Part shown: piece by piece, positions 10,648 to 61,300 of the stretch
How the letters are laid out: every line of letters starts with the position of its first letter
Numbering within the stretch: the stretch's first letter is position 1
Source of the DNA: Catajapyx aquilonaris
Taxonomy: Eukaryota
Assembly: GCA_000934665.2 (NCBI GenBank)
Contig: JYFJ02002020.1
Location: forward strand, 1 to 64,000
Direction: 5' to 3'
DNA length: 64,000 nucleotides
Translations under genes and position numbers: made by a program
The notes under the pieces: model-generated
The model's database searches: none
Told to the model about the DNA's origin: nothing
The model's input: only the letters and a program-made list of their open reading frames with translations

Positions 10648-10719
10648 TCCGGTATGGTCTAGTGGTTAGGATACCCGGCTCTCACCCGGGAGGCCCGGGT
10701 TCGATTCCCGGTACCGGAA
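10648..10719 (+). tRNA. tRNA-Glu (anticodon CTC)
   Basis: TCCGGTA acceptor stem pairs with TACCGGA; D-loop AGTGG; anticodon arm CCCGG-CTCTCAC-CCGGG; T-loop GTTCGATTC; followed by a T6 Pol III terminator. Confidence 0.97.
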
Positions 10720-10823
10720 CTTTTTTGACATTTTTGTATTCAGGGGTGTAACGAGGAAGAGTTAAAGAATGCTCAGCGTAAGAGTTTTTCTTCCAATAAT
10801 AAATAATCGAAAGACTAATCATA

Positions 10824-12900: not shown

Positions 12901-13654
12901 TAATAATCTGTAATAAGTGCAATGAGTTCACACCAGCGCAGCGGCAGGGTAACATTTCGCTAATAACAATATGGCTAGTGGGTAAACAAGAATTGTAGTT
13001 TCTAGGTGATGGCATTATGAACAAATGAATTAATGACAGAAAAAATAAGGGGTAAAAAAAATCACAGCTCCAATCCTGTAGCAGTGGGAACTGTGATGTT
13101 TTGAACATAGATCCGCACCATCCCACTGCACCTTCGGCCCTTTGATGAAGAAACCAAATTCCGAATAGTTATTGGGCAAAAAAAATGAAAACGTATTTTT
13201 TGGTGGTTTTAAATTTTTTGCGGCTTTTTGAAGAGGAATTAAGTTAAAGTGTAAATGGTAGGAAATCAAGTCACGATGGTGGGGATCTGCGTTCAAAATT
13301 TGGAAGCTCTACCTACAGCAGAACTTGAGTTAGGGCGAATAAAAAAAGCGTAACAAGAAGAAGAACAAGAAGAAGAAGAAGTAGGAAAAATTCATTGTTG
13401 AAACATTGTTGAAATCTATGCTACGGTCTTACTTAAGGGCTATCGCCCTTAAAATACCATGTTGCCGGCAGGGCTAATACTCAGCGTGTAATTGTGTCGG
13501 GAATAAAGAAATACACATACGCGTATGATCAGCTTTCTGAGTACTTGGCCAATTAGAAAGCAATAGGCTATTGTTTTTTAAAAAAATGTGGCAGGACAAT
13601 CTTCGATCAGTTTCAAGTGATACCTCTCTTAATGAATTAATAAATAATAAAAAG

Positions 13655-13726
13655 TTCCGGTACCGGGAATCGAACCCGGGCCTCCCGGGTGAGAGCCGGG
13701 TATCCTAACCACTAGACAATACCGGA
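13655..13726 (-). tRNA. tRNA-Glu (CTC), variant with G9>T
   Basis: Reverse complement is identical to the other copies except position 9 (TCCGGTATTGTCT...). T5 terminator follows; the 5' flank resembles that of the 10648 copy. Confidence 0.93.
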
Positions 13727-15159: not shown

Positions 15160-20963
<5,804 letters not shown>

Positions 20964-21226
20964 AAACAGACTTGATGAAAATTCTATCAAAACCTGACGG
21001 ATCCAACACCTATTTTTTTAAACACTGAGCCTCGAAGTATTGTAATGTCCATTTCACTTACGGAATAAAATACAATAATTAACTATCTATCTCCACAACA
21101 CATTATTATTGTCACTAACTGCATGATAAGATGAACATTACAAGAGTTTTAATTACGATTGAAGGTTAATTACGACGGCTAACCTTGGCCATGAACTTTC
21201 CTATACCTTTCACATGCTAATCGAGA

Positions 21227-21474
21227 GCATTCAGAGAAGCACATGGAGCTATACTTCGATTCAGACAAACTGAGAAATAAAGTAACTATTTGAAAAGAAC
21301 ACATTCCGATTGTTCCGTATTGAAAAGACACAATGTATGACAATAGAGGCATTCAGAGAAGCACATGAAGCTATACTTCGATTCAGACAACTGAGAAATA
21401 AAGAAATAAAGATATTTCAAAGGAACACATTTTGATTGTTCCGCATTAAAAAGATTAAATGATTGACAATAGAG
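21227..21474 (+). repeat. Tandem direct duplication of a ~122-bp unit upstream of copy 4
   Basis: Units start GCATTCAGAGAAGCACATG at 21227 and 21349, and both end GACAATAGAG. Confidence 0.9.
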
Positions 21475-21612
21475 GCTACGTTCAGTTCTATTCTATGTAT
21501 TCAAGTTGTGAATACTAAATACCTGCGCATTTCTAAGAGAATAATAGTGGTTGGGCACGTGACTCAGAAATTTTCTGTAGATCCTTGCATGTAATTATCC
21601 ACTGGGGTTTAG

Positions 21613-21618
21613 TATAAA
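21613..21618 (+). promoter_or_regulatory. Putative TATA box of GH31 copy 4
   Basis: TATAAA starts 47 nt upstream of ATG 21660. The equivalent position before copy 5 reads TATAAC. Confidence 0.45.
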
Positions 21619-21659
21619 GCTGCCTGAAATCCTCTTCACTTCAGCAAGAGAAGCCCAGA

Positions 21660-24600
21660 ATGAAGCACATCATGGGTTCCTCTCACCTTCTCTTCATTGC
21701 TGCCTCTCATTTCATGGTAAGCTATGTTATACTATTTCGCATCACACTGTAATTTTAGATGTGGCATCTTCAGTCCAGAATATGACTTTGCTCTGGACTT
21801 GGTGTCATTTGGTACTATGGAAGTGTTGTACTGTATTACGGTATTCTCCTTATATGCATACAATCCGTAACGCAAAATACGATTGATAAATGCTTGCCAC
21901 TGCCTCAGGAGTGTAGTGATATTTGAGTGTTAAACCCGAGTTCCAGGGTAAGTAACTCCCAATATAATTAAGTATAATTACACACAGCATCGAGGGAATT
22001 GACATACAAGGAATAAGTTCCTCTGGTGTTGCAGATCGCTGTGAGTGGTAGTGGTAACCATTGCCCCGAAGTTCCGGAATGTTACCAGCCAACCACATGC
22101 GCGGCGATCAAGGAAGATGTAGATGTAAAAGACTGCTGTCCTTCATGCGTTTGCTCCTGGTGTCCTAAAAATGGGCCTCCAAACTGCGTCAATAAGCCAG
22201 ACCTCGAGTGCTCATCCAGCACCGTCGTCAATAAGGTGGACTGTCACCCTCACCCGGATGCCAATGAAAATAACTGTTATGAGCTGGGTTGCCACTGGTG
22301 TCCTAAAAAAGCACCGAAGTCAGTTCCCTGGTGCTTCTATCCCAAGAACAGCATATGCACCAGGGTCGATCCCAGTGACAGAATACAATGCGGTGATGAT
22401 GGAATTACGCAGGAGGAATGCCTACACATAAACGGCCACTACTGCCCTACCAATGTGAAGGGTGTTCCATGGTGCTTTCATGACCCTAAGAGCCCATGCG
22501 TCACTTATCCGGATGAGTTGAGACATGACTGCAAGCCAAACCAACCGACAAACCGGGCGGACTGCCTGTCATCCGGGTGTCACTGGTGTCCTAATCCTGA
22601 CAGACGTGATATTCCCTGGTGCTTTTTAGACCAAAGTGTCACGTTGCAACCGACATGCCTAGATATTGCTGATGATGAAAAGTTGGACTGCCACCCTGAT
22701 GAGAACGTTGAACAGCAGAGATGTGCCAGCAGATATTGCAATTGGTGTGCTGAGAGCGATACTGCTCCACCGTGTTACTATGACACGAGAGGTAAGAAGT
22801 AACTTACGTGATTCAAAGAGAGGGAAACTTATACATGCACTGTACTTTTCAGATTGGGATCATTTTCCTGATCAAAGGGAAAACTTCCGCGTAAACGGTC
22901 ATCCAGAACCCGGTGCAACAAGAGAGAAATGCCAGAGTAGAGGATTCATTTGGCAAGAAGGCAGCACTCCTAATGTTCCGCCGTGTTACATACCGGCCAC
23001 GCATGGCTACACAGCCGTAAATAAAGTTAAGAAACTCCGAACAGGATACAGCGTCAAGCTTCGAAGACATCCCTTCCCACCTCAGTGTGGCGGACACTGC
23101 CCAAATACCATACAAATGATTATCACTACAATTAGTAAATCACTGTTCAGCTTCAAAGTGAGTTGAGATTTAAGCTACTCTAAGATTACAAGAATATCAA
23201 TTTCAAAATGCACCCCATTTCAGATCTTTGATCCTGACAATGCTCGTTACGAAGTCCCTGTGGAGACTGTGACTGAAGAGATAGACGTAGACGAGCCTTC
23301 ATTAGAATATGAGTTTAAATTTTACCACAAACCATCATTCAGTGTCGTTGCCAAAAGAAAAAGTACAGGAAGTGTGCTGTGAGTGTCTCGTTTCAAGTTA
23401 TACATTTCATCCATGCATCTTTTATGAACTTACATAAATGCATTAATGTACTATACATGAATTCTTCTCTTTTTCAGATTGGACACTCGTGATGGAGGTT
23501 TAGTTTTTTGCAAGCAGTTCGTTCAGCTTCACACCCGCGTGGCTTCTGAACATGTGTATGGATTTGGACAGAATGATCATCCAACGTTTAGGCACGACAT
23601 GAATTGGGAGACCTTGCCCTTGTTGACCAGAGATGTATGTACAGAGTCGAAATTCACTAAACTCTACCACAATAACGAAATCGTTCATTTGCAGGGAACT
23701 AATGGCAATCTGAACGGTGGCCTTCCATTTTACACAGTAACGGAAACTGATGGCAAAACCAACGGGGTACTATTTTTAAACAGCAATGATCAAGGCAAGT
23801 ATTATTTAAGTAGTCGTTAACCTTTCACTGTCCTTATGGGTGTGTTCATCCAGAGGTCCAGTTGACGCCTGCACCAGGCTTGTCCTACCGCACGGCTGGT
23901 GGAATTCTAGAGTTCTTCATCTTCTGCGGTCCAACACCCAAAAAAGTACATCAGGAGCTCGCAAAAGTGAGTTCACGACATGTCTCACGAGTATGACCTT
24001 TATTAGGCTTAAATATTGAATGTCGACAATGTTATCTCTGTTTTCCAGCTTTTTGGTTTAACAAATTCCATGCCAGCACTTTGGTGTTTAGGTGTCCACT
24101 TCGGTCAAGATAGTCAGGATCTTCAAGCACTGAAAAAATCCATTGAAAGCAACCGAAACAACGGAATTCCTCAGGTAAAGCTTCAGAAATGAGGCTTTAT
24201 TTTGACTCCTACATTATGTTATTGTTACAGGATGTGGTCTTTAGAAAAAGTGCCATTCAAAGCAAAATGGCAGGTTACACATACGATGCGGAGAGTTACC
24301 AAGCCTCGCTCCAAGCACAGTCTGAATATGTCGAATATGCCAACGAACGAAAAGCAGAAGGACTAAAATTTGTGACCCCAGTGGTAAGCGATTGTGAAGA
24401 TGGCTCATATATTATAATATAAAGTTATTATATTATTTCAGGAATCGGTAATTTCAATCAGGCAGAATAATCAATACAATAATTATACAGCAAAAAGTTA
24501 CGATCCATTCAAGCATGGCTGTAAGCATGACGTCTGGATAAAAAGGCACGATGGCACAACAGCACTTGGAAAGGTAGACAATATTCAAATCAGTACCACA

Positions 24601-27216
24601 TTACACGACAAAATATTATAAATATATTATTATTTCAGGTTTCACCAGATACAATAGTCGTCTATACTGATCCTGCCAGCCCTCATGCACAGGAGTGGTA
24701 TACATCAAGATTGACAAATGAACAAAATCTTCAACCTTGGGATGGACTTGATTTTGTAATGAATTCTTATGGCTCGATTTATTGTACATTATAAACTTAT
24801 CGATGGAAATGTAGCATTTTTCCACCATTGATTCCTATTCTATTCTCATCATGTACTGCATCTTACAACATTTCTTTTTCTTATTTCGACAGAGTGAACC
24901 ACCAACAATTGAAGACGGAGACGCTCGATATGGCAGATGCAGGGTGAACTTGTACAACAATCCCCCTTACAAACCTAGAGGTGAGTTTCACCAATGACGA
25001 CCTAACGTGTGCTCCTCTTAACATAACTTTCTATTTCTTCACGTGTCTTTCAATACAGGTCTTCAAGAGCTGATTACGGGGACCACATGTGCTGACGATC
25101 GACAATATGATGAGAATCTCCTCTACGATTCGCGCAACTTGCAGGGACTGCAACACTGTAATGTCATTTACAAGTAAGTTAATATGACCTATTATGCTCT
25201 TCAGGTGAATGACAAAAGTGATTCTGGAGTGACTAATTAGGCACTATTTACCACATAATGCAATGTAACCAATGCAAAGTAGAGTGTCAACAGACTAATA
25301 CGTTATATTGCATCACTACAATCTCATCTCGAAGTTATTGGTCACTGAATTTCTTTCCAAAACTAATATATGCTCTTCATACTTATTTTAGTGCCATCAT
25401 TCAACAGACAAATACGAGACCATTTGTTGTAACCCGATCGAGCAGCAGTTTCCCTTCGATTGGTAAATTCGCAGCAGTCTCTTTCGGCCATAACCTAGAA
25501 AGTTGGGACGATATGAAAAAGGCCTTTATCGGTATGAGCTATTTTCATTTATTCATTACACCAATAAATGACGGAATCCTTTGGTTACAGAACTTGTGAA
25601 AACGAGTACGTCAGCGACTCCTTTGGTCGGACCTAGTATAAGTGAGCCCACAGGAACTGGAAGCCCTGAGCAAACTGAGCGTTACTGTAGATGGTTTCAG
25701 TTTCTATCCTTCAACACTCTCTGCAGAGTGGTTAGTAGCCTCCAAGAGACAAAGCCAACAATGTCTCTGTGAGCCCAGAAATGACATTATTACTCTCCAG
25801 CCTCAAGACCTGTCTGCATATGGCGAAGAGGTTGCGGCCGTTGCGAAAGATGCCTTTTTGATACGCTACACTCTCCTGCCTTATCTGTACTGGCTCTTTT
25901 ACACGTTCGTCACAAAAGGAACACCAGTGGTCCGAGCTTTGCAGCACGTGTATGTATAATCGTCATTACATCATAACTACAAGGGAGGAACAAACTAGAG
26001 AATATTACCCACTGATACTATCTTTCGCACACTAAATTTCTATTAACTTTGTCCCTAGAAATGGTGAACATAGGTCGATTTTACACCTCACAAAATTGTG
26101 ATTTTAGATATTAATATCAAATTCAATTGACAAAAAGTGCTCTGAAGACTTCATACTTATTGTTAAAATGAATTGTTAATCAGATAATTAGGCTTACTCT
26201 TGTCTGTTCCAGATTCCCAAAGGACATACATGCGAGGGACACATACACACAATTCCTGTGGGGAAAAGGAATTCTGTTTTGCCCGGTTTCGGAGCCAGTA
26301 CGTCATCATATTTTTTTCTCTCTCTTAATATTCTTAAAATGCTTTCATTTCTCTCGTGAATATTTCAGGGCGAATATGTGAAAGTATACTTCCCCCCATC
26401 TGAACTTTGGTATGAATATGACACTGTAAGTAAAGTTGCCTACAACCTTCACTGTTTATTCTGTATATTCCTGTTATACTGACTCATGGTATTTGTGACA
26501 GGGCAAGCTAGTAACTACCACGGGGCGAAAGCAGAAGATATCAGCTCCGAAGCAGACCCTGCCAGCATTTGTACGCGGAGGTACCATAATCCCCACACAA
26601 GAACCGGCGCTGAATACAGAAGAGAGGTAAACTGACAACTTGCAGTCCCTGAAAACAATAGTGCTGTAATATATTATCATTTACTTTACCTATAGTTGGA
26701 GAACCCCTCTAGGGTTGATTGTGGCTCCTGACGAACGTGGAAAGGCTGAGGGAGAAATTTTCTTGGATGATGGCAAATCTCTAGGTAAACTTAATTATAC
26801 ATTATGAATCTCAGCACTTGCTACATTGATGCTCACTTTTGTCTGCATTGTCACGTTTCAGGAACTATTACCGACAAAAAATATTACACTGCAACAACGA
26901 GATTTGCCGACAATACCTTGAGGGTGATTCCCCAAGACACTAATTGCGAGGAGTCAAACAGCCGGAAATATGGACTGTGCCGAATCTTCACACGCAATAA
27001 AGTGGAGAGAGTGAGGGTTAATGGAAAAAGACACGATTATGTGCAAAACCCAGACACCAAGGTAATCATACATGCTCTAGTAGAAATAACAATTACTTAC
27101 ACATTTCGTCTTTAAAACTGCATTATTGTCCACAGGAAATAACTGTCGATGCAGCTAGTAGAAATATACGAATCGACCAGCCTCTCACTATAACATTGAT
27201 CGAATCCTCAGCCTAA
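21660..27216 (+). CDS. GH31 copy 4: intact ORF, about 6 trefoil-like units, predicted catalytically inactive
   Basis: ATG 21660 MKHIMGSSHLLFIAASHFM|IAVSG. All exons splice in frame at paralogous positions to stop TAA 27214-27216. Active-site motifs are altered (GLDF|SEP, SFGHN, GPSISEP, no RNHN). Confidence 0.88.
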
Positions 27217-29840
27217 CTTTGAGAAATGCGTGGCATCCTTCATAAATCAACGTAGTCACGATGCTGCGTAATTATGGAAAGAGAATGGTAACGTAATAAC
27301 GAAGACCGATGTATGGTGTGTGCAACCATGTAGCTTGTTTTTAAATATTCATATTCTTTAGCGTGTTGATCAGTAGTTATTAATAAATATATAATGTACT
27401 CCCTTTTGTTCCATCTCCCCTTATACTTTGAATTTCTGTGACATATAATAAATTGTTAATGGATACTGAAGGATAATAATTATGTGCCCTTCCATATTGT
27501 GTACAACTGAATGTCTCAATAAAACAATTTATCGGATTGAGGTCCAACAAAGTATGTCTTTTTTTAAAGGTCAAAATTAAATCCATTTCTTCATAACCCC
27601 CATGCAGTTGATCCTTCTGGAGGATTTAAAACTATTACTTCTTGTTTCAGCGTATTTTCATTTAAAGTGATATAATAAAATAATATCTACGCTACTTCGT
27701 AATGTGTCACCAGACCAATAAACCACTGAATGAGCCAATCAAGACATCGCAAATCGTACCCGCTCACACCTATCCCACTTTTGCACAAAATGTCCGATAC
27801 GCCTGGCATTAAGTTCCAAAAGTGACCAATGGAAAGGTCATCCAGGGAAATATTTAGAATTTTCAAACAGAAACTGGCTATAAGCGGTAGAGTCTAGAAC
27901 AAGTGTCACTTGCTTGCACTTTGTGTCCTTTGCCCACGTTTTGTGATTTTCTGTCAGTTTATCGTTGTTATTCGGCTTTTGCTCTGGGTTGTGACCTTAT
28001 TTTATACCTTAGTAGTTAGTACTTGAGGCCTGTAAAATTTTTCATTTTCTGTAACATTATCCTCCATACGCCAGCAAAAGTTTTTTTTTGCCTATTTAAG
28101 GGTTCATTTGGGCCTATTTTAGAGTATTTTCGTGCCTAAAAATCCGGACTCTAGGTGTGATATAAATTCCTCGGTGACAAAACCTATAGAATACGGCATA
28201 ATTATTCTCCATGAGTGATTCACGCCAGACATGTCATTAATATTGGTGTATGGAAACGCATGAAAATGTACACAGTAGAGAGAAACTTGAAGTAAAGATG
28301 GAAGATAATTGTGTCGTCTATTTTAGGACTCAATTATTATTGTGGACGACCGAGGGAGTAACAAGATCCAGGGATATACTGTATAAACCCCTTTAGTACA
28401 CCCTGTACACACAGTATGGAGCTATCCTGAGCACACCTCTTGATGATTTGGCATGGAATGATTGTTCTGGGTACCACTTAACATTACAATAGCAGGAAAC
28501 AATCAGGCTTGAAAACTTCACCTGTTATAGAACACATGCGACTTACATTGTGAACAGAGAGACTACTTTGCATGGGATCGCTAATCCTCTTACTAGGAAT
28601 ATTTCTCGCCTGACTTCAGCAATTCTTTTTCATTACTCATATTACAAGGAGCTGCACAGAAGAAATTACAAACCTGAATCACTAGCCGTCAATGTGACAA
28701 CATAGTAAAATATGAATATCAATTTCCATAGTTTCACCACCAGTATTAAAAGAATAATAACCTGACCTAGACAAGCGAAATAGCAGATATAAATATTAAT
28801 ATTTGCAATGATTGTAATTTTATCATCTGAAATGGATGTAATTACTCGGATATGAAGTACTTAACGGTTGGTACCGGTACGTGACCAACTGCATACAATC
28901 TGCTACGACCACGACCAAGGTCAGCACGGATACTTCAAATATAACCTGACGGTAGCATATGAGTCATATGACTGTGTTCAACTTTACCCAAATTGGAACA
29001 TTTTAAAATTCACTAATGCTTTATTTTTAAATATGTTGCATCTTAATAATAGGAACTCATAATGAATAATTTTTGTTGTTGTTGTACCCGGTGATGACCC
29101 TTACGGGTTCTATAGGGGGTGGTACACCACCACTTTTCAATCAATTTTCTAATTTTTTATCTTCACTCCGGTGCAGGGAAACAAGGACATTGGGTAAAGA
29201 TATGTATTTTTGGAGAGGACACATTGGTGCAAGTGCATTGTCTGAAAAGGGGTCATGTGCTGTTCGCCAGGAGGTTAGGTTGCCAGACACCTCCTTGGTG
29301 CAGGTCAGAGACCCTCCTGACACAGGTGGAAGGGAACTCCCTCGTGTACATTTCTCTTACTTGATAAAAATTTATTTATTCATCATGTACTTCCACAATA
29401 CGTAATTTTGGTCACTTTATCATGACATGAACATTTCAAGAATTTGACATGATTGTCTGCATAATGTGTGAGATTTGGTGTCTGGTAGACTAAATTACAG
29501 CTTTTTACTCTGAACATGAACTTTCATGTCCAAGTTCATGCCTTTCAAATGCTAATAGAGGTAGTCTGTGAAGCCCATCTGGAAGTTATATACTTAGACT
29601 CAAACAGACTCGTAAAAAAAATATTCAAAAGTAACACATTTCAATTGTTCTCCAATGACAAAGTAAAACGAATATTTACGAAGCTTACCTCAGTTCTGCA
29701 CTACGTGTTCAATTTCTGACTGATAGAGACATGCGCAATTCTATACTAAGAAAATTTCTGAACATCCTCACATAAAATTATTCATTGGGGTAATATAACG
29801 CTCCCTGAATTTCTGTTCACTCTAGCCTGAGAAGACCAGA

Positions 29841-35847
<6,007 letters not shown>

Positions 35848-36296
35848 AAGCCATGAAAACTGTGCAGCATACTTCATAAATCAACGCAGCCATGATACTG
35901 TGTAATATTAATGAAAGAAAATGACAACGTCATAATACACGACAGATGTATGGCGTGTGTTGCTTTGAAGAATTCATATTCTTTAATATGTTGATCCGTA
36001 GTTATTCATAAAAATATATACTGTATTCCAATTTGCTATACCTCTCCTTTCACTTTGAATTTTTGTGACATGTATATGAATGTTCTTTGGGTGTTCCATT
36101 ATACGGAAATTAATAAATAGTTGATTAGCGATTACTTTCAGTGTCTAATTGGCTCTAATTGGCTGCTGTTTAAAATGCTACAATATTACCTGGTCCACCA
36201 AATGCAACTATATAGTCCGTTAGTTTCAGAAGCATAACTGGCAAGAGCATCGTCAAGGTATCTACAGGGTAAGAAATAAGAAACCTCACTAAGTCA

Positions 36297-36368
36297 TCCG
36301 GTATGGTCTAGTGGTTAGGATACCCGGCTCTCACCCGGGAGGCCCGGGTTCGATTCCCGGTACCGGAA
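36297..36368 (+). tRNA. tRNA-Glu (CTC), about 290 bp upstream of copy 6
   Basis: Identical to the 10648 copy, but only TTT follows immediately (weak terminator). Confidence 0.95.
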
Positions 36369-36657
36369 CTTTATGAAAGAGAAAATGTCATCTCGAATGC
36401 ATTTTGGCAAAACTTAAAAGATGCGGAGTTATTTTGTAGCTCCGCGGAAAAAGAATTTCACTAATACGTCACTCGGCAATTCAATTATAGTGTATATTTA
36501 AAAAGACGTGTATGAGTCGACCTACAGGTCAGGCTTGTTACTGACCCATAGATGCCCTTGACTCCGAAAAGCATTACGTCTGCTGATAGGATAAGGATGA
36601 CAGAAAGGGATGTCTCAAAACCGGCTGGTTAAGCTAACCACGCACGAAAGTCACAAC

Positions 36658-41897
<5,240 letters not shown>

Positions 41898-41904
41898 TAA
41901 AAAA

Positions 41905-43339
41905 TCAGTCGGCATGGTAGTACTTGGGATTATGGGGATAGAGGCGCCTACTGTCGGGAAAGGGGCTCAGCTTTTCACGACTAGAGCGGAACCTCTGCTC
42001 TATTACTTTGTCATAAAAGCGAGTCAGTTTGATGGATGAACTGGATCCTGGAGCAAGAGATCGGACTGCGTTGCAATCCTGTTGGAATAAAAATAACAAT
42101 TTCAGTAATACATTGTTGCCAACAATTTCGTACCATGTCTTTTGTCTTTTATGTCTTGCTCAGTTTCCTCTACCCACCACACCATAGTTTAAAAGTTATT
42201 TTTCCTAATGGAAATTGCACATAAAAATATGGAATTCCAATGGACTTATACGGAATTACGCTGTTCACTTTGACACTTTCACTCTGGAAGCTGCGAGGTT
42301 GAATGCTGTGGCACTAACCCCTACACCAATATGCTGCCCTGAATGGTCTTTATGTGATGCCTTTGGGACCCTTTGGTCACTCTACCAGAGTTAATTCATG
42401 CCACATGTACTTACTGCGAAAAACACTGCAGTTTATTCAAATGAAAGTGAGTGTGACACTCTCACAACGCCAAAGTCATTATGAGAAAATTACAAAAACG
42501 GCCACTAATTGAAAAATCGGAACAACTTTGTAATATGACTGTAAAAAATATGTACCAGAAATATTTCATCGGCTCCACACTCTTCTGCAACTGAAGCTAT
42601 TCTCTTGTATTGCTGAGGTCTGGCTTCATCTACCAAGTCCAATTTTGTACCAATTACCAAAATAGGAACCTGCGGGACACCAACAAATTGCTCGGGATCA
42701 TAATCATCAAAGGAGCCTCTGGACTTGGATCCATTGCCTTTGTTGAGAATCTCAGAGAGCCAGCGATGAAGGTTTTGATGTGACTTCCGGTTCGTCAAGT
42801 CATGCACTAGGATAATCCCTGGAGGGGGAAAAAAAATGAGCAAATGAACAACATCTTGCATGACATCATATTGAACCATACCATGCACAGCATTGTAGAA
42901 AACATATCTGGAGTTCCTGTGGCTGCTGCTCCCGCCCATATCCCACATCTCGACAAAGTACGTGTTCTGCTGCGGTGTACCTTCCTTATACTCATGCAGC
43001 TTGACATCCACCGCACAGCCTATCGTCCACGACGGATTGCTTATCGGTTCATTGTGGCAGATCAGGTGCACCAGCGATGACTTCCCAACACCTGAAGAAT
43101 GCGAGTGTGTCAAACATGTTTATTGCTTACTCGTAATGCCAACCACACTACAATTATTCTTTTTAAACGCTTATAAACCAGTACAGTGCAGTACATTTAT
43201 GATTTTGGAGCATTTTTAGCAGCACAACTCTCTAAACATAATTCTAAAGAACATGCCTTTGCCACAATTGTACTCCACGTAATAATTCCTCACCTGAGTC
43301 ACCCACGACCAGGACCTTAACCTTGTCAATGGCAGCCAT
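41905..43339 (-). CDS. RABL3: Rab-like protein 3 (small GTPase), 4 exons
   Basis: MAAIDKVKVLVVGDS|GVGKSSLVHLICHNEPISNPSWTIGC...WDMGG...GIILVHDLTNRKS...VIGTKLD, and last exon DCNAVRSLAPGSSSSIKLTRFYDKVIE...HAD*. These match RABL3 signatures. Confidence 0.93.
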
Positions 43340-48630: not shown

Positions 48631-51600
48631 ATGGGAACGGTTGTGTTTGATCAGAGCGGCTTGGTGGCTGAAGCTAAGAAAAATTTTCGTTCCAGAATTG
48701 GGCCAAAGTATTCAGACGATGGTAAGAAATTTTGCGTTTTGCGTAATTATGCGGTGACAATGTTATTATTTGGCAGATCTCATTAAAACGTGGAATGGAA
48801 TATTTGATGTCATCAAGGACCAGTTGATGAAGCAGCGTGTGAGTATAGCACAGTCATCGTTATTATGACTACAGTACCGGTACTTAACCTTGTTATTAAT
48901 TGTTCAGGGAGCGGACTTGGCTGGGTTCGGCACATTCAATTTCTCCCAGATCAAAATGAACATTGCCCAGCAGGCAGTGCTGTGCAGCCGCCAGCCAATA
49001 TTCCGCCTCTGCCCCAAACTTGCAGACTACTACCGCATCCAGTCGTGCCAGGTCTTCCGAGATGGAGACCTCACTTGTTATCCGGTGAACTTGGCCACAG
49101 TGGCTCAGCAACTGGGAATGGACAGGCGTGTGGTGGAGTGGTGCACTGCGGAAGTTCTGTCCGCATTAGCTCGTGCCCTCAGCCAGGGTAAGGACGTGGA
49201 GTTCCCGGTGCCAGGGATGTGCAAGGTGCAGATACGGAACAAACGGCTGAAGACCATATTCCTGAGATCCTTTGAGAACAAGCTACCCATCTACCACATT
49301 CCAGAGGAGCGAAAGAAAGACGCTGAGCGAATTGCCCAGATTGAGGCCGATGGGATTGCCAATCGGGACAAGCAGAGGGCCGCAGGAAGAGAGAGGAAGC
49401 CAAAGGTGGTGAAGAAGGAGAAAAAGCCGGTGAAAGCTACTACGCCTAAAGCAGTACCATGTGGCCCAACCACATGCAAAGCCTTCATGGCTTCTGCTGG
49501 GGACAACGAAGCATCCCAAGAGGAAGGAGGCAGCGGTCCATGTGTACCCAACACTTGCCCAAAGTTTAACCCGGCAAGCGTAAGTATACACACCTTCTCT
49601 TATGTCAATTACTGAATTGTTGCTTGTGCTAACATGCCATTATTCCAGCTTATCCTTAGAATCCATATGGGGTTTATTAGTTGAATAATGAAATATCCCT
49701 TTTGTCATGAAATTTTGTGCATTATACTGTATACTATCTAAATGGATAGCAATTGCTTCTTAAAATTTGGCATGCAGAAATACAGTCCTAAAACAAATAA
49801 TCATTGTCTAGTGAAGGTCTTGTTGCACTGTCGCTGGAATGCCAGCGGAAAGCGGGCCAGGAGAGTTTGTTATTCATTGTCGTAAACTTTTCTCTGAACA
49901 ATGAATAACGGAATTTTCAGGCTCCTTTCCAGCTGAGAAATTTTTCTGGTGATGATGTAACCAGACCTAAATGTACAATAATTGTTCTTCAACTACTTGG
50001 GTTGGGATTTCCCTACACTTGTGTGCATGATTTATTTGGTGACTCGGTGGATCCCCATTTTCATTCTAGAACTAAGGCAAATGTGTCACAAGGAAGTGAA
50101 ATGGGAATAGCAGCCATAACCACAGCCACTGCTGTTCTCTAGAACCGAATCTCAATCAACTTGACACCCCATCACTCAATAAACTGCCACACAAAATGCA
50201 CATTGTAGTTTTATTGAATAGCATCCTATGAAGAATGAAATCCAAACTCTCTTCCTCTCCTCTCCTTTCCCTCTCTGCCCCTTCCGTGGTTCAGGGTGAC
50301 GTGCAACGGACTTCTCGCAGGCTTGAAAGAGACACCCTGTGTCTTAATGATCCTAAGAACAAGTCTGCTGTCCCAGACAACTTTGTGGGGAAGAACATTT
50401 GGTGCCGTAAAGGGGACGAAGAGAAGCAAGCACCTTTCATCAAAGCCTGCTTCCCTGGGACCAACCACCCTATCAACCCAGCTCCGCCTCACAAGACCAG
50501 TGTTTTTTCTGAGTCCATGATGAAGCCCATGCAAAGCATAACTGACTTGGAGCAAGTGCTGGCTGACTGTGAGGTAAGTTACTGCCATAGAATTGGCTGT
50601 CAGAGAATTTAATGTTGCATATGGTGCACAGGAAAAGAAAGAATCTGTGGCCTCTTTATGGGAATTATTTTTGGCACACTCTTGGAAACTGCGGATTCTT
50701 GATCCACGGTAGGTTGCATCCGCAGGTGTGGAACATGCAGTTACGAAGGGTTGCTGAAATTTAACTACTGCATGGCTACTCAGTGGAATGATCATTATGT
50801 GTGTCACTGTGGTCTCTATTGCACATATTGTATTGAGAACAAGGATGTTGATTAATATACACTTTCTAGGTAGGACAGTAAGCCATAAGGAATCAGTGTA
50901 ATTATATCTCACTTGATTAGTTTTTTTTGTCGTGACTATCATTACCAGGATCTGAAAGGGCGTCGTTTGTGCGTGAGGTGTTCTCGCAGGATGGGGTGTA
51001 ATGCACGTGCAGCATGGACTCAAGAGCATTCCGTGAAGCAGCATGAGGACATGGATGCCTATCACAGAGAAGCCCTTCCTCTGCAACCAGACTTTGCTGG
51101 CGAGTTGGCTGCTTGCAGGAGAAAGCAGGCTACGGAACAGGCCAAGTTCAACTATGATAAGGGACAGAAGGAGAGGGAGGAGCGGTTTAAGAAAGACACA
51201 ACCTCCCTGCCCATGTCTGATGTCTTCCATGCCGTATGTGTTGCTCCTCTTTGTTGGTCCCAATTTTATATCGAAGTTTGATAATAATTGAATCACACTG
51301 AATGACATGCAGGACTGAGGCTTGGTTGCATAAATGTAAATTTAAAGTGACCTATACAGGGTGTAAATGAATTCAACCGACAAACTTCTAGGGGTGATAG
51401 AGGGGACCAAGACAAACATTTTTGACATAGGAACCCGTGTCCGGAAACGCCATCTAGAGGGGGTTCATAGACAAGGAACGGGTGAGCTCAGACGCGTCAC
51501 ACGTGAGGCGCTAGGCGAGCGGACTGTTTTGTTGATAGATGGCGCTCGGATAGTAACCAACGATGCGATGTGCCATAACGTGGCAACAACAGAGTCATCT

Positions 51601-53541: not shown

Positions 53542-56500
53542 TCAATATGTTTCAAGAAGCTTTTGTGAAGGTACTGAGGAGAGTACTTCATACTCAGGTT
53601 GCTTCTTATGGTAGACCATCAGTAACGAAAGTTCGTCTGGATTATGAACTTCTTGTAAATTGGTTTTCTTGCACCTATTTTGTTCCAGCTGGGATGAAAT
53701 GGACTTGACTTCTTGGTACACTGGAACAAGCACGATGAATGCAGTGGCGATGTAGGCCCATCCTCTGGAGATGACGGTCCAGATGGAGAATCCGTAGGCA
53801 TCCAGAATGGTGGTACCAAGGAGCATGCATGCAGGCCACAGGATAATGAAGAACACAGCCAGGATGACTGCAGTTACATATGCAGTCAGAATGGCTGGAC
53901 GGAACTTCCGAATCACCAGCTCCAGTGGTGGACGGCTTTGGACATCTTTTGGGGAATCAAGTTTGAGCTCATCCTGTTTTGAAAGGACAATTGATTTACA
54001 ATCGAATTGTACTCGTATAACACAGGTGAGGCTAACTATGAACCACCCTCATGTCGGTGTGTGCAATGAATTATTATTATTTTGTGCCAAACTTCACCTG
54101 ATAAGCTTCAACCCAAGGCGAGAGTGGGTTGTCTATGTTGCGAGTCTTTTCCCATTCGGCTTCCAGTTCCTCAGGTGTCCACTTCGGTTTGGTTATTATG
54201 GACACCAAGGCACATATTATTCCTCCTGCTCCAATGGACACGACATTGCCAATAAACATGGCATATATCTATATCAAAGAGAGAAGTTGATTAAATTAAC
54301 CTTTGTGTGACCTATGGCTATGATATTACATTTCCGGTGTTGTTGATGAAGTCCCCCAACCCCCCTGGCAGAGTGGACGAGTAAGAGAGCCAGGAGACGA
54401 TGGCGCAGAGGAATCCTCCGAGGCTTCCAGCGATCATCCCAGAGGAGGTGGCCCTTGTCCAGGTGATGGAGAAGGCGATGGGGATGACCGCTGCCGAGAT
54501 GAGGACCCCGATGAAGTAGTAGATCCAGGAGAGGTTGAGCTTGGCGTACCAGGCCAGAAGGGTCAGGACCACGGACAGGACTGTCCCGTTCACTATCCAC
54601 CAGTTCTTGTAGGCCAGGAGGTCCTCCAGGTACTCCCTGTACTCCTTGTGCACTGGACACTGGTACCGGAACTTGCCTTTGGCAGGGGAATGAACTTGGA
54701 GGAGTGAGTGGTCCTCCTGTTGTGTACATAATATTAATTAAAGCATTAAAGCATTATAAGATAATGATATAATGTGTTACACAGTATCATAGCGCGAATA
54801 TGGGACTACCAACATTTTGTTTGCCAACATTTTCATAATAATTAATTACCCATTAAAAATTATATGCAGCCAATGAGACAAAAATACTCGTACCTATGAA
54901 GTAGTATAGGAGAGAATTGTTTTTCATACCGTACCTAACTTACCAGTATCTTCACAAGGCCGCCCAATTAAATGTCCCTTAGCGATTTTTAGTGCTAAGC
55001 TGCTAATTTTGAGGCAGATGGAAGTCATCAAAAATATTAGCTCATAATATATAAATTGTGTTGATCCATTTGGAACTTTACTAAATACATTCCCTTACTT
55101 TGCAACCTTCACATTGCGTGGCTGAAAGGCATTGACAGAGTGGCTCGTCGGTCGCATCGAGCATATCCGTCGGCGGATGGACGTATTTGGAACAAAGGAT
55201 GCACTGACCTTCCTTCAAGTCCTCTCGAAAAGGCTTCAGGTATACCTGATAGCAAAGCAAATAATGTTAATTCACCTCTGGGCATGCTGTCAATATCAAC
55301 CCAAGTATCAACTGGTAATAACTCTTCACCTGGTATATGTCGTAGACCACAATGGAAGCCACGGCCACAACCTCGGAGGCACCTGTGGCCATTACTGCCA
55401 TCAGTATAAGGACGATCATGATCACTTCTCCCAGCTTGCCCAATAGTTTGTGGCATACAAATGCAGCCACCAATCCTAGATTTATTTTACCGGAATTAGT
55501 AAATGGACGGATAAGAGTGTGTTCTGTTAACTGACCGCTGTCCACTTGGTTGTCTGTGAGCAGCTGTTGTCCGTGGGCCGAGTTGAGTCCCAGGTAGGCC
55601 AGACCCATTGTTGTGGCCAGTCCAAACGGAACCGCAAACCAAGTCACTGCTCCCAGAACAAAGCCCCACACACCCTGGTAAAGATGTGTGTCTTGGAGTG
55701 TGTGTAATGAACTTTCAAAAAAATTGCAACATGGTTCTATAGTACCAAGAGCTAACAACTTATTAGCTCTTGATAGTACGTACTATAGTCTCGTACTACA
55801 ATGTACGTGTTTGCGTCTGATGTTGACAAGACATAATAAGTGTCCTATAATACACTGGGCTCATCGCAGTCTTGAGGTCCACATGTATACTGTACGACCG
55901 TATGTCGGGGATATAGGATTACTCATGATTTACTACAACTGATGAGAGCCATTTCAACGTTTTATGTCAACTAACGTTAGTTACTGTACAGTACCATCTG
56001 TTCAACTGTTCATGCTCAAGCAATCTGATTTTACAGGATCGACTGACAATGACCGATATACCTGATCTTGAATTTATCAGAGGCGCAGCTATTAATTTTT
56101 CATGAAATTAGCAAGGTAATAAGGGTTTTAACCTCTAGGGCTATTAACCTACCTCTAATGGTTTTGCTGCCACCGATTTTTGCCAATAGGCCTGGTCGCA
56201 AAAGACGGCACCGAAGTTACCAACAATGTTGACAATGCCAAAAATGATTCCCTCGGAGGAGTAGAAGGTGAGGTAGCTCTTGTCCCTGTTTCCTTCTGGC
56301 CCTTCCCAACACTCGAGGAAGCCAAACATGGCCTGGCTGCTCCCAAAAGGATTCTTCGGGTTGTCGCTCGGATTGTGGTAAACCTCGATGATCAGCCAGC
56401 ATATCAGGATGTAAATGAGGGCCGTGTTGAAATAAGAGACGTAGAAGGTGGCACCCAGACCACCGATCACAGTGTAGATGGCCACTATGCTGGCCAGCAT

Positions 56501-57591
56501 GAATGTGGCCAAGTCAGGGGACAAATCACTCACTAGTCTGTAATGAAGAAAGTAAATAATATTACTGGAAGCGCACCGCGAACATGATAAAAATTGAGCA
56601 TCCTTCGTAACAGCAAGAGGAAAGGACTGACCCGTTAATGACGGCAACGCCTGCTACCATGAGAGCCGTGACAATAATTGCATTGGTCAGCAAGGCAAAT
56701 CCGCAGAAGACCAGGTGTGCTCTTGTCCCAAATCTTGCCCGGATGACCTGTGCAATAAAATAGGATATTACCTTAATGCTTATTTTTTATATGAATAAGC
56801 AAGTCAGTATGATTTTAACCTGAAGGAATGTCTTGGCTCCTGGAGCTCTGGTTTTAAGCTGGATAGACAAAATGGCAAAGACGATAATTTGTATTGTTGC
56901 TCCACCAGCGTACCAGTAAGGTCCACTGATTCCAAACTGGAAGAAATTAGAGCTTGTAAATGTTTTCAGTAACTTTTCTGTTAGTGTGACGCTTTTAACA
57001 AAAATGGCAGTGACTTTTTCACCTGCTTTTAAATTTATGTAGGCTAAAACTTACTTTGGCAGCCACAGTGCAGCTCTGCAGCAACGTTGCAGTCCAGGTC
57101 CAGTTGGAGACAATGCAACTGGCAGTCAAGCTCAGAGACACGTTTCCTCCAGCGTCGAATGCAGTGTCCAGGCTGTCCGAATCGTGGTACACATGCGTCC
57201 GTACCTGAAATCAAAGGAATGTGCAAAATTTCAATTCAAACGTGTAAGATTGAAATTTAAAACAAATGGAATTACTCACCATTTGAAATGCGTATGCAAT
57301 GATGGCCGATATGACTCCGACGACAAGAAAGACAAGAAATCCTTCCCACATTTCCACCGATCCCAATGCATGGGTTGGATCTACTTCCACATTATTTCCT
57401 CCGAATTGTTGGACCACCCTGTCCTCGCAACCTTCCTTCAAACGTGGGTCGTACACAGGACCAGAAATGGTCGTCGTGTCTGCATCTTCCTCTGCAGACA
57501 CCATTTGAGGCACGTCATTCACAATAAACGTCGCAGTTGCACACATGCAACGTGAAATCAGAAAGATTGCCAAAGTAAGAGACTTATTCAT
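53542..57591 (-). CDS. DUR3-like urea active transporter (SSS family) copy 1, apparently intact
   Basis: Spliced exons give AFDAGGNVSLSLTASCIVSNWTWTATLLQS, GISGPYWYAGGATIQ, APGAKTF, YTVIGGLGATF, GNFGAVFCDQAYWQ, WFAVPF and MAVMATGASEVVAVASIVVYDIY. All are DUR3-family motifs. Confidence 0.88.
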
Positions 57592-58336: not shown

Positions 58337-61300
58337 TTATGATTGTCCAGAGCTGTGGAAATTGTCCCCACACTGCTCACATGTCTGGTCAGCCACAGCC
58401 ACCAACGATTTTTGTTCCAAAGGATCTTGTAGTTTTCTCCCCTTGCATCTGTTTCGCTTCATCTGAGTCCTGATGGCCATTACCTCCTGGACCACTGGAG
58501 TAAAGACAAAGAAAACGGTAGCAATGTATGTCCACAATTCGGAGACAATGACCCAAGCCGAAAATTCATTTTGGCCCAGAACGGTGGTCCATAGAAGCAT
58601 GCAGCCAGGCCACAGGATGATGTAGAAGACTGTGAGGATGCCTGCTGCCCAATAGGCGATCAGCAAGGACGGACGGAACTTTCTGACCACCAGCTCTAGA
58701 GGCGGACGCTTGTAGACGTCTTTGGAAGTCTCCAGGTCCAAGTCATCCTGTAGCAAAGTTCCGTTATATATGGCGAACCAAATGGTCAATCGCACTTGGA
58801 AGAACCGTGAAATTACCTGATAAGCTTGAACCCAAGATGAGAGAGGGTTATCTATATGTTGCGAGTCTTCTCCCATTCGGCTTCCAGCTCCTCAGGTGTC
58901 CACTTCGGTTTGGTTACAATGGACACCAAGGCACATATTATTCCTCCTGCTCCCATTGACACCACGTTACCAATGAACATGGAGTAAATCTGCAGTCATA
59001 AAAGGGCTTATTAATATTAGTTCTTCCCGTCAATTACCAGCCCCAGAGGACCTACATTGCCGGTGTTGTTGATGAAGTCCCCCAACCCCCCTGGCAGAGT
59101 GGAGGAGTAAGAGAGCCAGGAGACGATTGCGCAGAGGAATCCTCCGAGGCTTCCAGCGATCATCCCAGAGGAGGTGGCCCTTGTCCAGGTGATGGAGAAG
59201 GCGATGGGGATGACCGCTGCCGAGATGAGGACCCCGATGAAGTAGTAGATCCAGGAGAGGTTGAGCTTGGCGTACCAGGCCAGAAGGGTCAGGACCACGG
59301 ACAGGACTGTCCCGTTCACTATCCACCAGTTCTTGTAGCCCAGGAGATCCTCCAGGTACTCCCTGTACTCCTTGTGCACTGGGCACTGGTACCGGAACTT
59401 GCCATGGGCAGCCGGGTGAACTTGGAGGAGTGAGAGGTCCGACTGTTTTGTTTACATATGGGTATAAGACACGGAGATTATATCACCATGTCCTAAAGAA
59501 ATGTATTGTAGTGGTCGTTCCTGCTTACTCTGCATCCTTCACAGTGCGAAGCATCAGAACACTGGCAGAGTTCTTCTATACCTTCTGGTGTGCCTTTCAA
59601 TGGACGGATATATTTGGAACATAGAAGACATTGTCCTTCCTGCAGGCCTCTTCTGAAAGGCTTCAGGTACACCTATACAATACACATGGTACGTAACAAT
59701 ATTGTTTTTACGCCACTTTCTATGTTGTTGCTTAAATGTTTCCTACCTGATAGACGTCATAAACTACTATGGAAGCCACGGCCACAACCTCGGAGGCACC
59801 AGTAGACATTGCAGCCATCAGAATCAAAATTATCATCATTACTTCTCCCAGCTTTCCCAGAAGTTTGTTTGACACAAAGGCAGCTACCAATCCTGCAATA
59901 AGTGATTGTTATTAATTCTGCAACACTAGAGCAATGTTACATGAATACCGCTGTCCACTTGGTTGTCTGTGAGCAGCTGTTGTCCGTGGGCCGAGTTGAG
60001 TCCCAGGTAGGCCAGACCCATTGTTGTGGCCAGTCCAAACGGAACGGCAAACCAAGTCACTGATCCGATCACAAAGCCCCACACACTCTGGTGAAAAGTC
60101 AGTTGCCAATACTGTAGTAGAATCCACCAGAATAGAAAATTTTGCACTTGAAACTTACTTGCACTGGCTTTGAAGCAACTGACTTTTGCCATAGTGACTG
60201 GTCACAAAATGAGCTAAATCCCGTCACTATGTTCATTATGCCAAACAGAATTCCCTCGGAGGAGTAGAAGGTGAGGTAGCTCTTGTCCCTGTTTCCTTCT
60301 GGCCCTTCCCAACACTCGAGGAAGCCAAACATGGCCTGGCTGCTCCCAAAAGGATTCTTCGGGTTGTCGCTCGGGTTGTGGTAAACCTCGACGATCAGCC
60401 AGCATATCAGGATGTACATGAGGGCCGTGTTGAAATAAGAGACGTAGAAGGTGGCACCCAAACCACCGATCACAGTGTAGATGGCCACTATTCCGGCCAG
60501 CATGAATGTGGCCAAGTCAGGGGACAAACCACTCACCAAACTGTATTGAAATCAATGACAGTATTTGTTATGAAAATGAACCAGAGAGTGTACTTGCCCG
60601 TTAATTACAGCAACGCCCGCCACCATAAGAGCAATAACAATAATTGCGTTGGTCAGCAAACCAAAACCGCAGAAGACCAGGTGTGCTGTTTTCCCAAATC
60701 TTGCTCGTATGACCTGTAGTAAAATAGAAATATTAATGTCAATTAAATTATTAATATTTTACTTTTATTATCATTACCTGCAGGTATGTCTTGGCACCTG
60801 GCGCCCTAATTTTAAGCTGGGTTGATAGAATGGCAAAGATGATTATTTGAATCGTTGCTCCCGCTGCGTACCAATAGGGTCCACTGATTCCAAACTATTT
60901 TTTGAAAAAAAATGTAATGGTATACATATGACATGAACTCTGCATTTTTGCAGCCTTGTTGCACTTTTTGCATGTACAAACATTCTTAGTGAATAAACAT
61001 AAAAATTGCTATTGCATTATTAATTAAATATTAGTACTAGATTAGTAGGGGGCCTACTTTATTATGCTATCACTATGTTATAATGTCCTTAGTGGTTAGC
61101 GATTTTTGGCAATGCACTGCTTATTTTTACTAAATTTTATTACTTTTTCATAGTGGCACATAGTGGTTACGAAAACTCTCAGGAAATGTTTTCTCCTTAC
61201 TTTGGCAGCTACAGTACAGCTCTGCACTAACGATGCAGTCCATGTCCAGTTGGAGACAATGCAACTGGCAGTCAAGCTCAGAGACACGTTTCCTCCAGCG

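Follow-up and report, generated by a model that had tools for sequence, protein, structure and literature searches.

The chitinase-like lectins (GH18) and the 4F2hc/rBAT heavy chains (GH13-like) are binding proteins derived from enzymes, in which a glycosidase fold is kept and expressed after catalytic loss and is under purifying selection. Among the animal GH31 proteins, the trefoil-bearing alpha-glucosidases (lysosomal alpha-glucosidase, maltase-glucoamylase, and sucrase-isomaltase) share one order of domains, a trefoil followed by the N-domain, the barrel and two C-terminal domains, with one trefoil per unit. GH31 enzymes are described as needing an Asp in the WIDMNE motif (strand beta-4) and a second Asp on strand beta-6 (PMC8063059), and the general concept of the pseudoenzyme is treated in PMC5106787 and PMC10211241. 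A literature search found no paper that joins GH31 and pseudoenzyme; broader searches gave only a remark on possibly inactive GH31 genes in a sandfly survey.

The window analyzed here is a stretch of 64,000 nucleotides (nt) from Catajapyx aquilonaris (assembly GCA_000934665.2, contig JYFJ02002020.1, positions 1 to 64,000 of the forward strand) that contains six GH31 genes in tandem, all on the plus strand. Copy 1 is truncated by the left window edge and copies 2–6 begin near 4.9, 15.4, 21.7, 29.8, and 36.8 kb. The subject of this study is copy 4, which has the domain order of the animal trefoil-bearing GH31 proteins but differs from them by having five trefoils and by the replacement of the catalytic Asp pair and most subsite residues. 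The ratio of nonsynonymous to synonymous substitution rates (dN/dS, omega) is about 1.3 for copy 4 compared with a GH31 family background of 0.14. Like the lectins and heavy chains above, copy 4 keeps an expressed glycosidase fold after the loss of catalytic residues, but those families are conserved. We consider it rather probable that copy 4 encodes an expressed, probably secreted, non-catalytic trefoil/GH31 protein under a mixture of weak constraint and positive selection. Copy 4 has the features of a pseudoenzyme (lost motifs, spliced contigs, and a reading frame kept by selection), with the loss of activity itself predicted from the sequence.

Structure, transcription, and age of copy 4

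The gene model of copy 4 was built from the window sequence, spliced contigs, and paralogous positions, and a spliced aligner of our own gave the identical 22 exons. The gene, its parts outside the catalytic pocket, and its sister gene are located as follows:

21613..21618, plus strand: TATAAA box, 47 nt 5' of the ATG of copy 4
21660..27216, plus strand: copy 4 gene, 22 exons, 3441 nt, 1146 codons plus the stop codon at 27214-27216
21660..21716, plus strand: exon 1, ATG at 21660, hydrophobic N-terminus, likely signal peptide
22035-22791 and 22853-23157, plus strand: exons 2-3, five trefoil (P-type) domains and the start of the GH31 N-domain
23224..24174, plus strand: exons 4-8, GH31 N-terminal domain, then the start of the barrel
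23478-23634, plus strand: exon 5, well conserved, its last part holding the Asp203 equivalent
23795, plus strand: GC donor of intron 6
25801..27216, plus strand: exons 16-22, rest of the barrel and two C-terminal beta-sandwich domains, all seven joints in contigs
27217..27420, plus strand: 3' untranslated region, extent reached by a contig (piece 27134-27420)
29841..35847 (end approximate), plus strand: copy 5, sister gene, all catalytic motifs kept

None of the 1146 codons is an internal stop. The 21 introns comprise 20 GT-AG introns and one GC-AG intron (donor GCAAGT after 23794), all with consensus ends, and all 42 splice dinucleotides are intact; the hallmarks of an unprocessed pseudogene (stop codon, frameshift, lost splice site) are absent. 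Nine out of 18 compared exons differ in length from their counterparts in copy 5, each by a multiple of three, and the 300 nt upstream of the two genes are 75% identical. The preliminary description of this locus had reported intact, in-frame exons without stop or frameshift, a hydrophobic N-terminus, and a TATA box, all of which hold in the present model; the N-terminus reads MKHIMGSSHLLFIAASHFMIAV. Trefoil domains (PF00088) were identified in exon 2 (E = 4.5e-28, four stretches) and exon 3 (E = 1.9e-05, one stretch), and the five matches carry the cysteine pattern of the domain. For exons 9 and 10, the aligner proposed an alternative splice (24231-24393 + 24491-24573) with copy 6 as the template; the RNA joints listed fit neither choice decisively, and the paralogous junctions were used. 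Intron 5 (23635-23694) is 60 nt long, in frame, and stop-free, and is 82% identical to the copy 5 intron without a gap. Its retention would lengthen the protein by 20 residues.

The RNA evidence comes from one public run (X1) that contains 48% of the sampled words from the region and whose contigs were aligned to positions 21000-40999. Among the joints listed, the contigs omit at least 12 of the 21 introns of copy 4 exactly at GT..AG, and contigs that skip stretches bounded in this way are therefore derived from spliced RNA. Eleven of these joints lie between 24755 and 27134 (including 24755/24893) and one further joint lies at 22789/22851; introns 1 and 3–10 are not among the joints listed and were placed by inference. 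A contig of 2085 nt starts 36 nt before the acceptor of exon 2 and extends 986 nt past the donor at 23157. Across copy 4 the contigs reach 27420 and differ from the window by no indels and a single substitution (position 25435, synonymous, R807), and none of them carries a frame-breaking variant. The model of copy 5 agrees with all four RNA joints listed for it. Copy 4 is thus transcribed and spliced in this single public run.

Between copies 4 and 5, the depth of the run peaks (83.3) at 29004-29670, and at 29336 a contig with a loose end departs from the sequence of the window; a repeated or separately transcribed element is likely. A tRNA/Rfam scan of the interval between the two copies found no tRNA and no Rfam family.

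A phylogenetic tree of the six window genes and 16 outside full-length proteins places the window genes in one clade (Shimodaira–Hasegawa-like approximate likelihood-ratio test, SH-aLRT, 95) with copies 4 and 5 as sisters (SH-aLRT 100) and with tip lengths of 1.28 for copy 4 and 0.40 for copy 5. The pair differs by 0.49–0.56 synonymous (dS) and 0.47 nonsynonymous (dN) substitutions per site, whereas all other pairs are saturated. At four-fold degenerate sites, 58 out of 204 positions differ (Jukes–Cantor distance, JC, 0.357), and over 1477 aligned nt of the 19 introns that can be compared the identity is 75.7% (JC 0.294), with single introns reaching 89%. The coding DNA is 64% identical, evenly over the three codon positions (0.63, 0.66, and 0.64), and the proteins are 45% identical. 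The order of these distances (dN 0.47 > four-fold sites 0.357 > introns 0.294) is the pattern of an accelerated duplicate. The introns that are least similar between the two copies (9–11, 15, and 16) flank the pocket exons. Identity of copy 4 to the other copies is 37–40%. These sequence comparisons identify copies 4 and 5 as sisters, copy 4 being a young tandem duplicate; that an active sister gene adjoins it, as previously described, agrees with the tree and with the intact catalytic motifs of copy 5. A search with exon 2 of copy 4 in a large protein collection (longer and near-length proteins) found no match and no orthologue, and the open frame of copy 6 has relatives among representative proteins at only 34–41% identity.

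Replacement of the catalytic residues

Motifs were compared in an alignment of the six window copies and mapped onto the N-terminal unit of maltase-glucoamylase (chain 2qly) by PDB alignments. The exons of copy 4 that encode the pocket motifs are the following:

24231..24383, plus strand: exon 9, RKSAIQ (24243-24260) for GDIDVM, 7-residue insertion
24442..24573, plus strand: exon 10, ESV for DPG, 7-residue insertion, splice sites inferred from the paralogous position
24639..24755, plus strand: exon 11, VSP for VWP, YTDP for YPDF, DGLDF (24741-24755) for DGIWI
24893..24980, plus strand: exon 12, opens with SEPP where the paralogs have DMN[ED]P, nucleophile Asp missing
25392..25531, plus strand: exon 14, SFGHN (25480-25494), His825 encoded by CAT at 25489-25491, Arg526 equivalent kept
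25591..25730, plus strand: exon 15, GPSISEP (25629-25649) for GADVCGY, RNH deleted

The motifs WIDMN[ED]P, WLGDN, DID, RNHN, and GxDxCG are intact in copies 1, 2, 3, 5, and 6. In copy 4, GDIDVM is changed to RKSAIQ, DPG to ESV, VWP to VSP, and DGIWI/DMNDP to DGLDF/SEPP; in addition, LHNLYG is changed to SRNLQG, SWLGDN to SFGHN, and GADVCGY to GPSISEP, and RNH is deleted. DDG and other scaffold motifs are still present. Every motif change listed in the preliminary description, the conservation of the motifs in the other five copies, and the persistence of the scaffold motifs recur in this alignment.

The acid/base position (residue 542 of the 2qly chain; WLGDN, strand beta-6) is occupied by His825 in place of Asp. 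In copy 5, the exon with GIWI at its end covers residues 405–442 of the chain, and the nucleophile is therefore encoded by the first codon of exon 12, which is Asp in copy 5 and Ser725 or a gap in copy 4, such that the Asp of WIDMNE has no counterpart. Because exon 11 is 117 nt long in both copies, GLDF lines up with GIWI, and this register places the surviving Asp722 at the Trp441 position, two residues before the nucleophile position. The nucleophile had been called ambiguous owing to this surviving Asp; the loss of the motif stands, and Asp722 is placed outside the nucleophile position.

The sugar and inhibitor contacts given for the N-terminal unit of maltase-glucoamylase, based on docking, include Asp203, Asp327, Trp406, Asp443, Arg526, Asp542, Phe575, and His600 (PMC8435576). 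Copy 4 keeps two of these eight residues (D203 and R526) and the remaining six are replaced or deleted; against maltase-glucoamylase, the mapped changes are D327K, W406S, W441D, W539S, D571S, F575P, and a deletion of H600. As judged from the aligned sequences, the catalytic Asp pair and most of the sugar-contacting residues have been replaced in copy 4.

The changes are strongest in the pocket-forming exons. Exons 9, 11, and 15 of copy 4 match no GH31 chain among PDB chains at E ≤ 10, whereas the equivalent exons of copy 5 match GH31 chains (1.4e-8, 1.8e-4, and 3.4e-35, respectively) and exons 5 and 14 of copy 4 match maltase-glucoamylase (E = 1.1e-22 and 7.9e-13). In Pfam, exon pieces of copy 4 score 23.9 bits (cut-off 23.5) and 21.2 bits for PF01055 and 22.5 bits (cut-off 24.4) for PF21365. 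Together with the PDB matches and the clade of six genes, these scores assign copy 4 to GH31 by descent and architecture. Compensated frameshifts were considered as a source of the scrambled motifs and rejected: a free nucleotide alignment gains little and out-of-frame translations match no paralog (best E 0.78).

Among the 16 full-length proteins from outside the window that were aligned as representatives, three lack the acid/base Asp (P0114 from a sea urchin, P0047 from Strigamia, and P0126). They are full-length trefoil/GH31 proteins like copy 4 and are not its relatives on the tree, and two of them carry parallel substitutions: Trp to Asp near the nucleophile in P0114 and the acid/base Asp to His in P0126. 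A sea-urchin cluster annotated as 'sucrase-isomaltase-like' (P0114, P0151–P0155) lacks the catalytic Asp pair and is conserved between genera, and the Asp pair is missing as well from the centipede (Strigamia) protein P0047 and from P0126; all of these homologues are uncharacterized. The sea-urchin clade has a long stem (1.32) and short tips (0.04–0.11), which indicates conservation after the loss; copy 4, in contrast, is a young and fast tip (1.28).

Selection on copy 4 and competing explanations

Stop-creating changes are expected at 153.7 per unit of neutral divergence (K), which gives at least 17 on the copy 4 branch, where none is seen. The probability of observing no stop is 2e-8 at the lowest branch estimate (K = 0.115) and 2e-19 at the K of the codon model (0.28), and a probability of 0.05 requires K to be at most about 0.02, less than one fifth of the shortest branch estimate. 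Copy 4 carries 206 specific replacements at sites where copies 5 and 6 agree, and the requirement on K implies that most of these roughly 200 replacements arose while the frame was under selection. The intron alignments of copies 4 and 5 contain 72 gaps in 1477 nt, only 10 of which are multiples of three; the coding alignment contains 21 gaps in 1022 codons, and all of its indels are in frame. Retention was scored at the 505 sites that have the same residue in copies 5 and 6. Cysteines are retained at 29 out of 32 sites (18.4 expected, p = 4.8e-5), including 25 out of 26 in the trefoil part, and Pro and Gly likewise exceed the number expected under neutrality, while Leu (15 compared with 26.2 expected, p = 2e-4), Met (0 out of 7), and Ser fall below it. 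The number of differences per codon varies more than a binomial distribution predicts (chi2 = 75.9, variance ratio 1.31), and this excess is strongest in the true codon phase; intron triplets, by contrast, follow the binomial (chi2 = 2.7, p = 0.25), which speaks against clustered mutation as the cause. The exons are unequal in the amount of change (chi2 = 43.2, p = 0.0012): the pocket exons (9–13 and 15) keep 58 out of 129 conserved sites compared with 241 out of 376 in the other exons (p = 2e-4), and exon 15 is the most changed (7 out of 28 kept). The frame and splice sites of copy 4 have been maintained by selection and the trefoil disulfide framework is preserved. The absence of stops, the in-frame indels, the retention of cysteines, and the codon-phase clustering argue against neutral decay.

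Substitution rates were estimated with codon models. In a model of five genes (857 codons), omega is 0.14 for the background, 0.20 for the stem, 0.54 for copy 5, and 1.26 for copy 4, and the branch model improves on a single ratio by 2dlnL = 226 (twice the difference in log-likelihood). With three genes and an equal neutral length for copies 4 and 5 (1005 codons), omega of copy 4, at 1.28, lies above 1 (p = 0.0135), with values of 1.09–1.55 in every domain. A two-class mixture on the copy 4 branch (698 gap-trimmed codons, one neutral length shared by copies 4 and 5) places 70% of the sites at omega 0.49 and 30% at omega 7.9 (likelihood-ratio test, LRT, 66.9 compared with one class), and the 71 fast sites (posterior >0.9) peak at residues 840–880. 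Against a uniform neutral model, the mean omega of copy 4 in the five-gene analysis is not different from 1, yet there is strong heterogeneity among sites, and it is this heterogeneity that rescues a functional reading despite the mean. Overall, the protein of copy 4 has changed at the neutral rate or above it, some of its sites being weakly constrained and others replaced much faster than neutrality predicts. The age of the sister pair, the dN/dS of 1.26–1.28 on the copy 4 branch, and the evidence against neutral decay are new with respect to the preliminary description.

The active sister, copy 5, is also fast-evolving. Its omega exceeds the background (p = 2e-9; 0.35 compared with 0.027 at conserved sites), and it has lost RYEVP in the N-domain while keeping every catalytic motif. 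In a two-class control, 81% of its sites are at omega 0.12 and 19% at 3.7 (LRT 12.0 compared with omega = 1, p = 5e-4).

Several points weigh against a functional copy 4. In the five-gene model its omega is neither different from 1 (p = 0.28) nor clearly different from that of copy 5 (p = 0.068), and in a fit with two background site classes it is 1.01 for the conserved sites (background 0.027) and 1.62 for the variable ones. The residues retained (299 out of 505) are close to the neutral expectation of 287. Taken together with the value of 1.01, this means that no ordinary fold-wide constraint is visible and that the GH31 body lacks conservation of the usual kind. Because copy 5 also has a class with omega above 1, part of the signal of positive selection may be shared or artefactual. 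The codon models were fitted with our own code without a cross-check in PAML or HyPhy, and an earlier null fit of the two-class test reached an odd optimum, after which the test was repeated with trimmed columns. On the side of expression, the support is limited to a single run, 9 out of 21 introns rest on inference, and no orthologue was found. The preliminary description had named a dN/dS near 1 across the whole gene as a sign of neutral decay, and taken alone the omega of 1.26 is such a value. Its proposal of a maintained non-enzymatic factor holds for the intact and expressed gene, the lost catalytic pair, and the frame kept by selection, and fails for an ordinary conservation of the GH31 body.

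The main alternative, which we regard as unlikely although it deserves serious consideration, is that copy 4 died recently: it would have become functionless after the loss of catalysis, be transcribed from a promoter inherited with the duplication, and owe its open frame only to a very recent lapse of selection. The omega values of 1.26 overall and 1.01 at conserved sites, the equal divergence of the three codon positions, the near-neutral retention of residues, and the destroyed pocket are what such a gene would show. The same history needs a neutral divergence of about 0.02 per site or less for even a 0.05 probability of no stop, and it is at odds with indels that are all in frame, the retained cysteines, a codon-phase clustering unlike that of the introns, the 42 intact splice dinucleotides, and contigs free of frame-breaking variants.

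A second and improbable alternative, judged from the sequence, is that copy 4 is still an enzyme with relocated or different catalytic residues, acting on alpha-glucosides or on a new substrate. The nucleophile and acid/base positions are filled by Ser725 and His825, Asp722 survives two residues ahead of the former, copy 4 retains D203 and R526, and replacement is fastest in the pocket exons, as if the site had been rebuilt rather than only lost; migrated catalytic residues have been noted in some pseudoenzymes (PMC10211241). These observations are set against the loss of six of the eight mapped sugar or inhibitor contacts (including D327, W406, F575, and H600) and against the statement that no known GH31 enzyme functions without both Asp residues (PMC8063059). 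In a stronger form, positive selection may have rebuilt the pocket around a Ser-His-Asp-like constellation within the GH31 barrel, formed by Ser725, His825, and Asp722, the last in place of the pocket Trp on the strand of the nucleophile position, creating new hydrolytic chemistry or a high-affinity ligand site, which seems very improbable.

The descent of copy 4 from an old inactive GH31 lineage (e.g., the sea-urchin clade), made to look young by gene conversion from copy 5, is scarcely credible: P0114 has the same Trp-to-Asp change near the nucleophile, at the second residue before it, along with a basic acid/base residue, P0126 shares the Asp-to-His change, and introns 9–11, 15, and 16 are the least similar to copy 5, but conversion would have homogenized the exons too, no donor is visible at the 37–40% identity of copy 4 to the other copies, and the grouping of copies 4 and 5 (100) within the window clade (95), far from P0114/P0152, P0047, and P0126, speaks against such a descent.

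Under the favored reading of a secreted, non-catalytic protein, copy 4 would derive from a duplicated trefoil-bearing GH31 alpha-glucosidase that lost the machinery of a retaining glycosidase. The protein would no longer cleave alpha-glucosides and would act by binding: the trefoil modules may tether it to mucus-type glycans, and the remodeled GH31 body, through a new surface or pocket, may keep pace with a fast-changing partner, for instance microbial, parasite, or dietary molecules. The preliminary description had suggested a mucin or glycan binder, an inhibitor decoy, or a partner of copy 5 as candidate roles. A role as a decoy for active-site-directed inhibitors appears unlikely from the sequence because six of the eight inhibitor-contacting residues are gone.

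In venom PLA2 genes, introns are reportedly better conserved than exons. Duplicated secreted proteins such as the snake venom families are described as having high ratios of nonsynonymous to synonymous substitution rates (KA/KS) (PMC6062510). Copy 4 and the venom families are alike in being tandem duplicates with KA/KS near or above 1, and copy 4 has a coding identity of 64% compared with an intron identity of 76%. It is unlike the toxins in that it is a 1146-residue enzyme scaffold in which the acceleration accompanies the loss of catalysis.

Copy 4 would represent an early stage of a transition from enzyme to non-enzyme. With the active sister adjacent and the introns of the two genes still alignable, it allows a direct reading of the order and tempo of the changes. 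For genome annotation, the gene cautions that a gene-wide dN/dS of about 1 need not indicate a dead gene if the frame, splice sites, and cysteines are under selection. Trefoil-bearing GH31 proteins that lack catalytic residues recur in invertebrate proteomes, as the three among 16 aligned representatives illustrate, and a function for copy 4 could open up a neglected class of proteins in gut or mucus biology.

Other features of the window

Within the array, copy 6 contains an open frame of 1362 nt (36768-38129) that runs through three short introns called by the aligner (60, 54, and 58 nt), which are either in-frame introns or were lost in copy 6. Copy 3 has a single intron of about 1 kb (17471-18508) where the other copies have 60–300 nt. 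Additional features identified in the window are:

10648-10720, plus strand: tRNA-Glu(CTC) gene
13654-13726, minus strand: tRNA-Glu(CTC) gene
15338-15410, plus strand: tRNA-Glu(CTC) gene
36297-36369, plus strand: tRNA-Glu(CTC) gene
42508-43119, minus strand: Ras-family match
48869-49612, plus strand: CCDC81 match
56147-56653, minus strand: open frame matching PF00474 (sodium:solute symporter), profile positions 116-166
60102-60551, minus strand: open frame matching PF00474 (sodium:solute symporter), profile positions 116-166

Of the four tRNA-Glu(CTC) genes, which are scattered through the array, two immediately precede copies 3 and 6, and none was found before copies 4 or 5. The two minus-strand open frames match the same part of PF00474, which suggests that two neighboring sugar-transporter-like genes are located near the glucosidase array.

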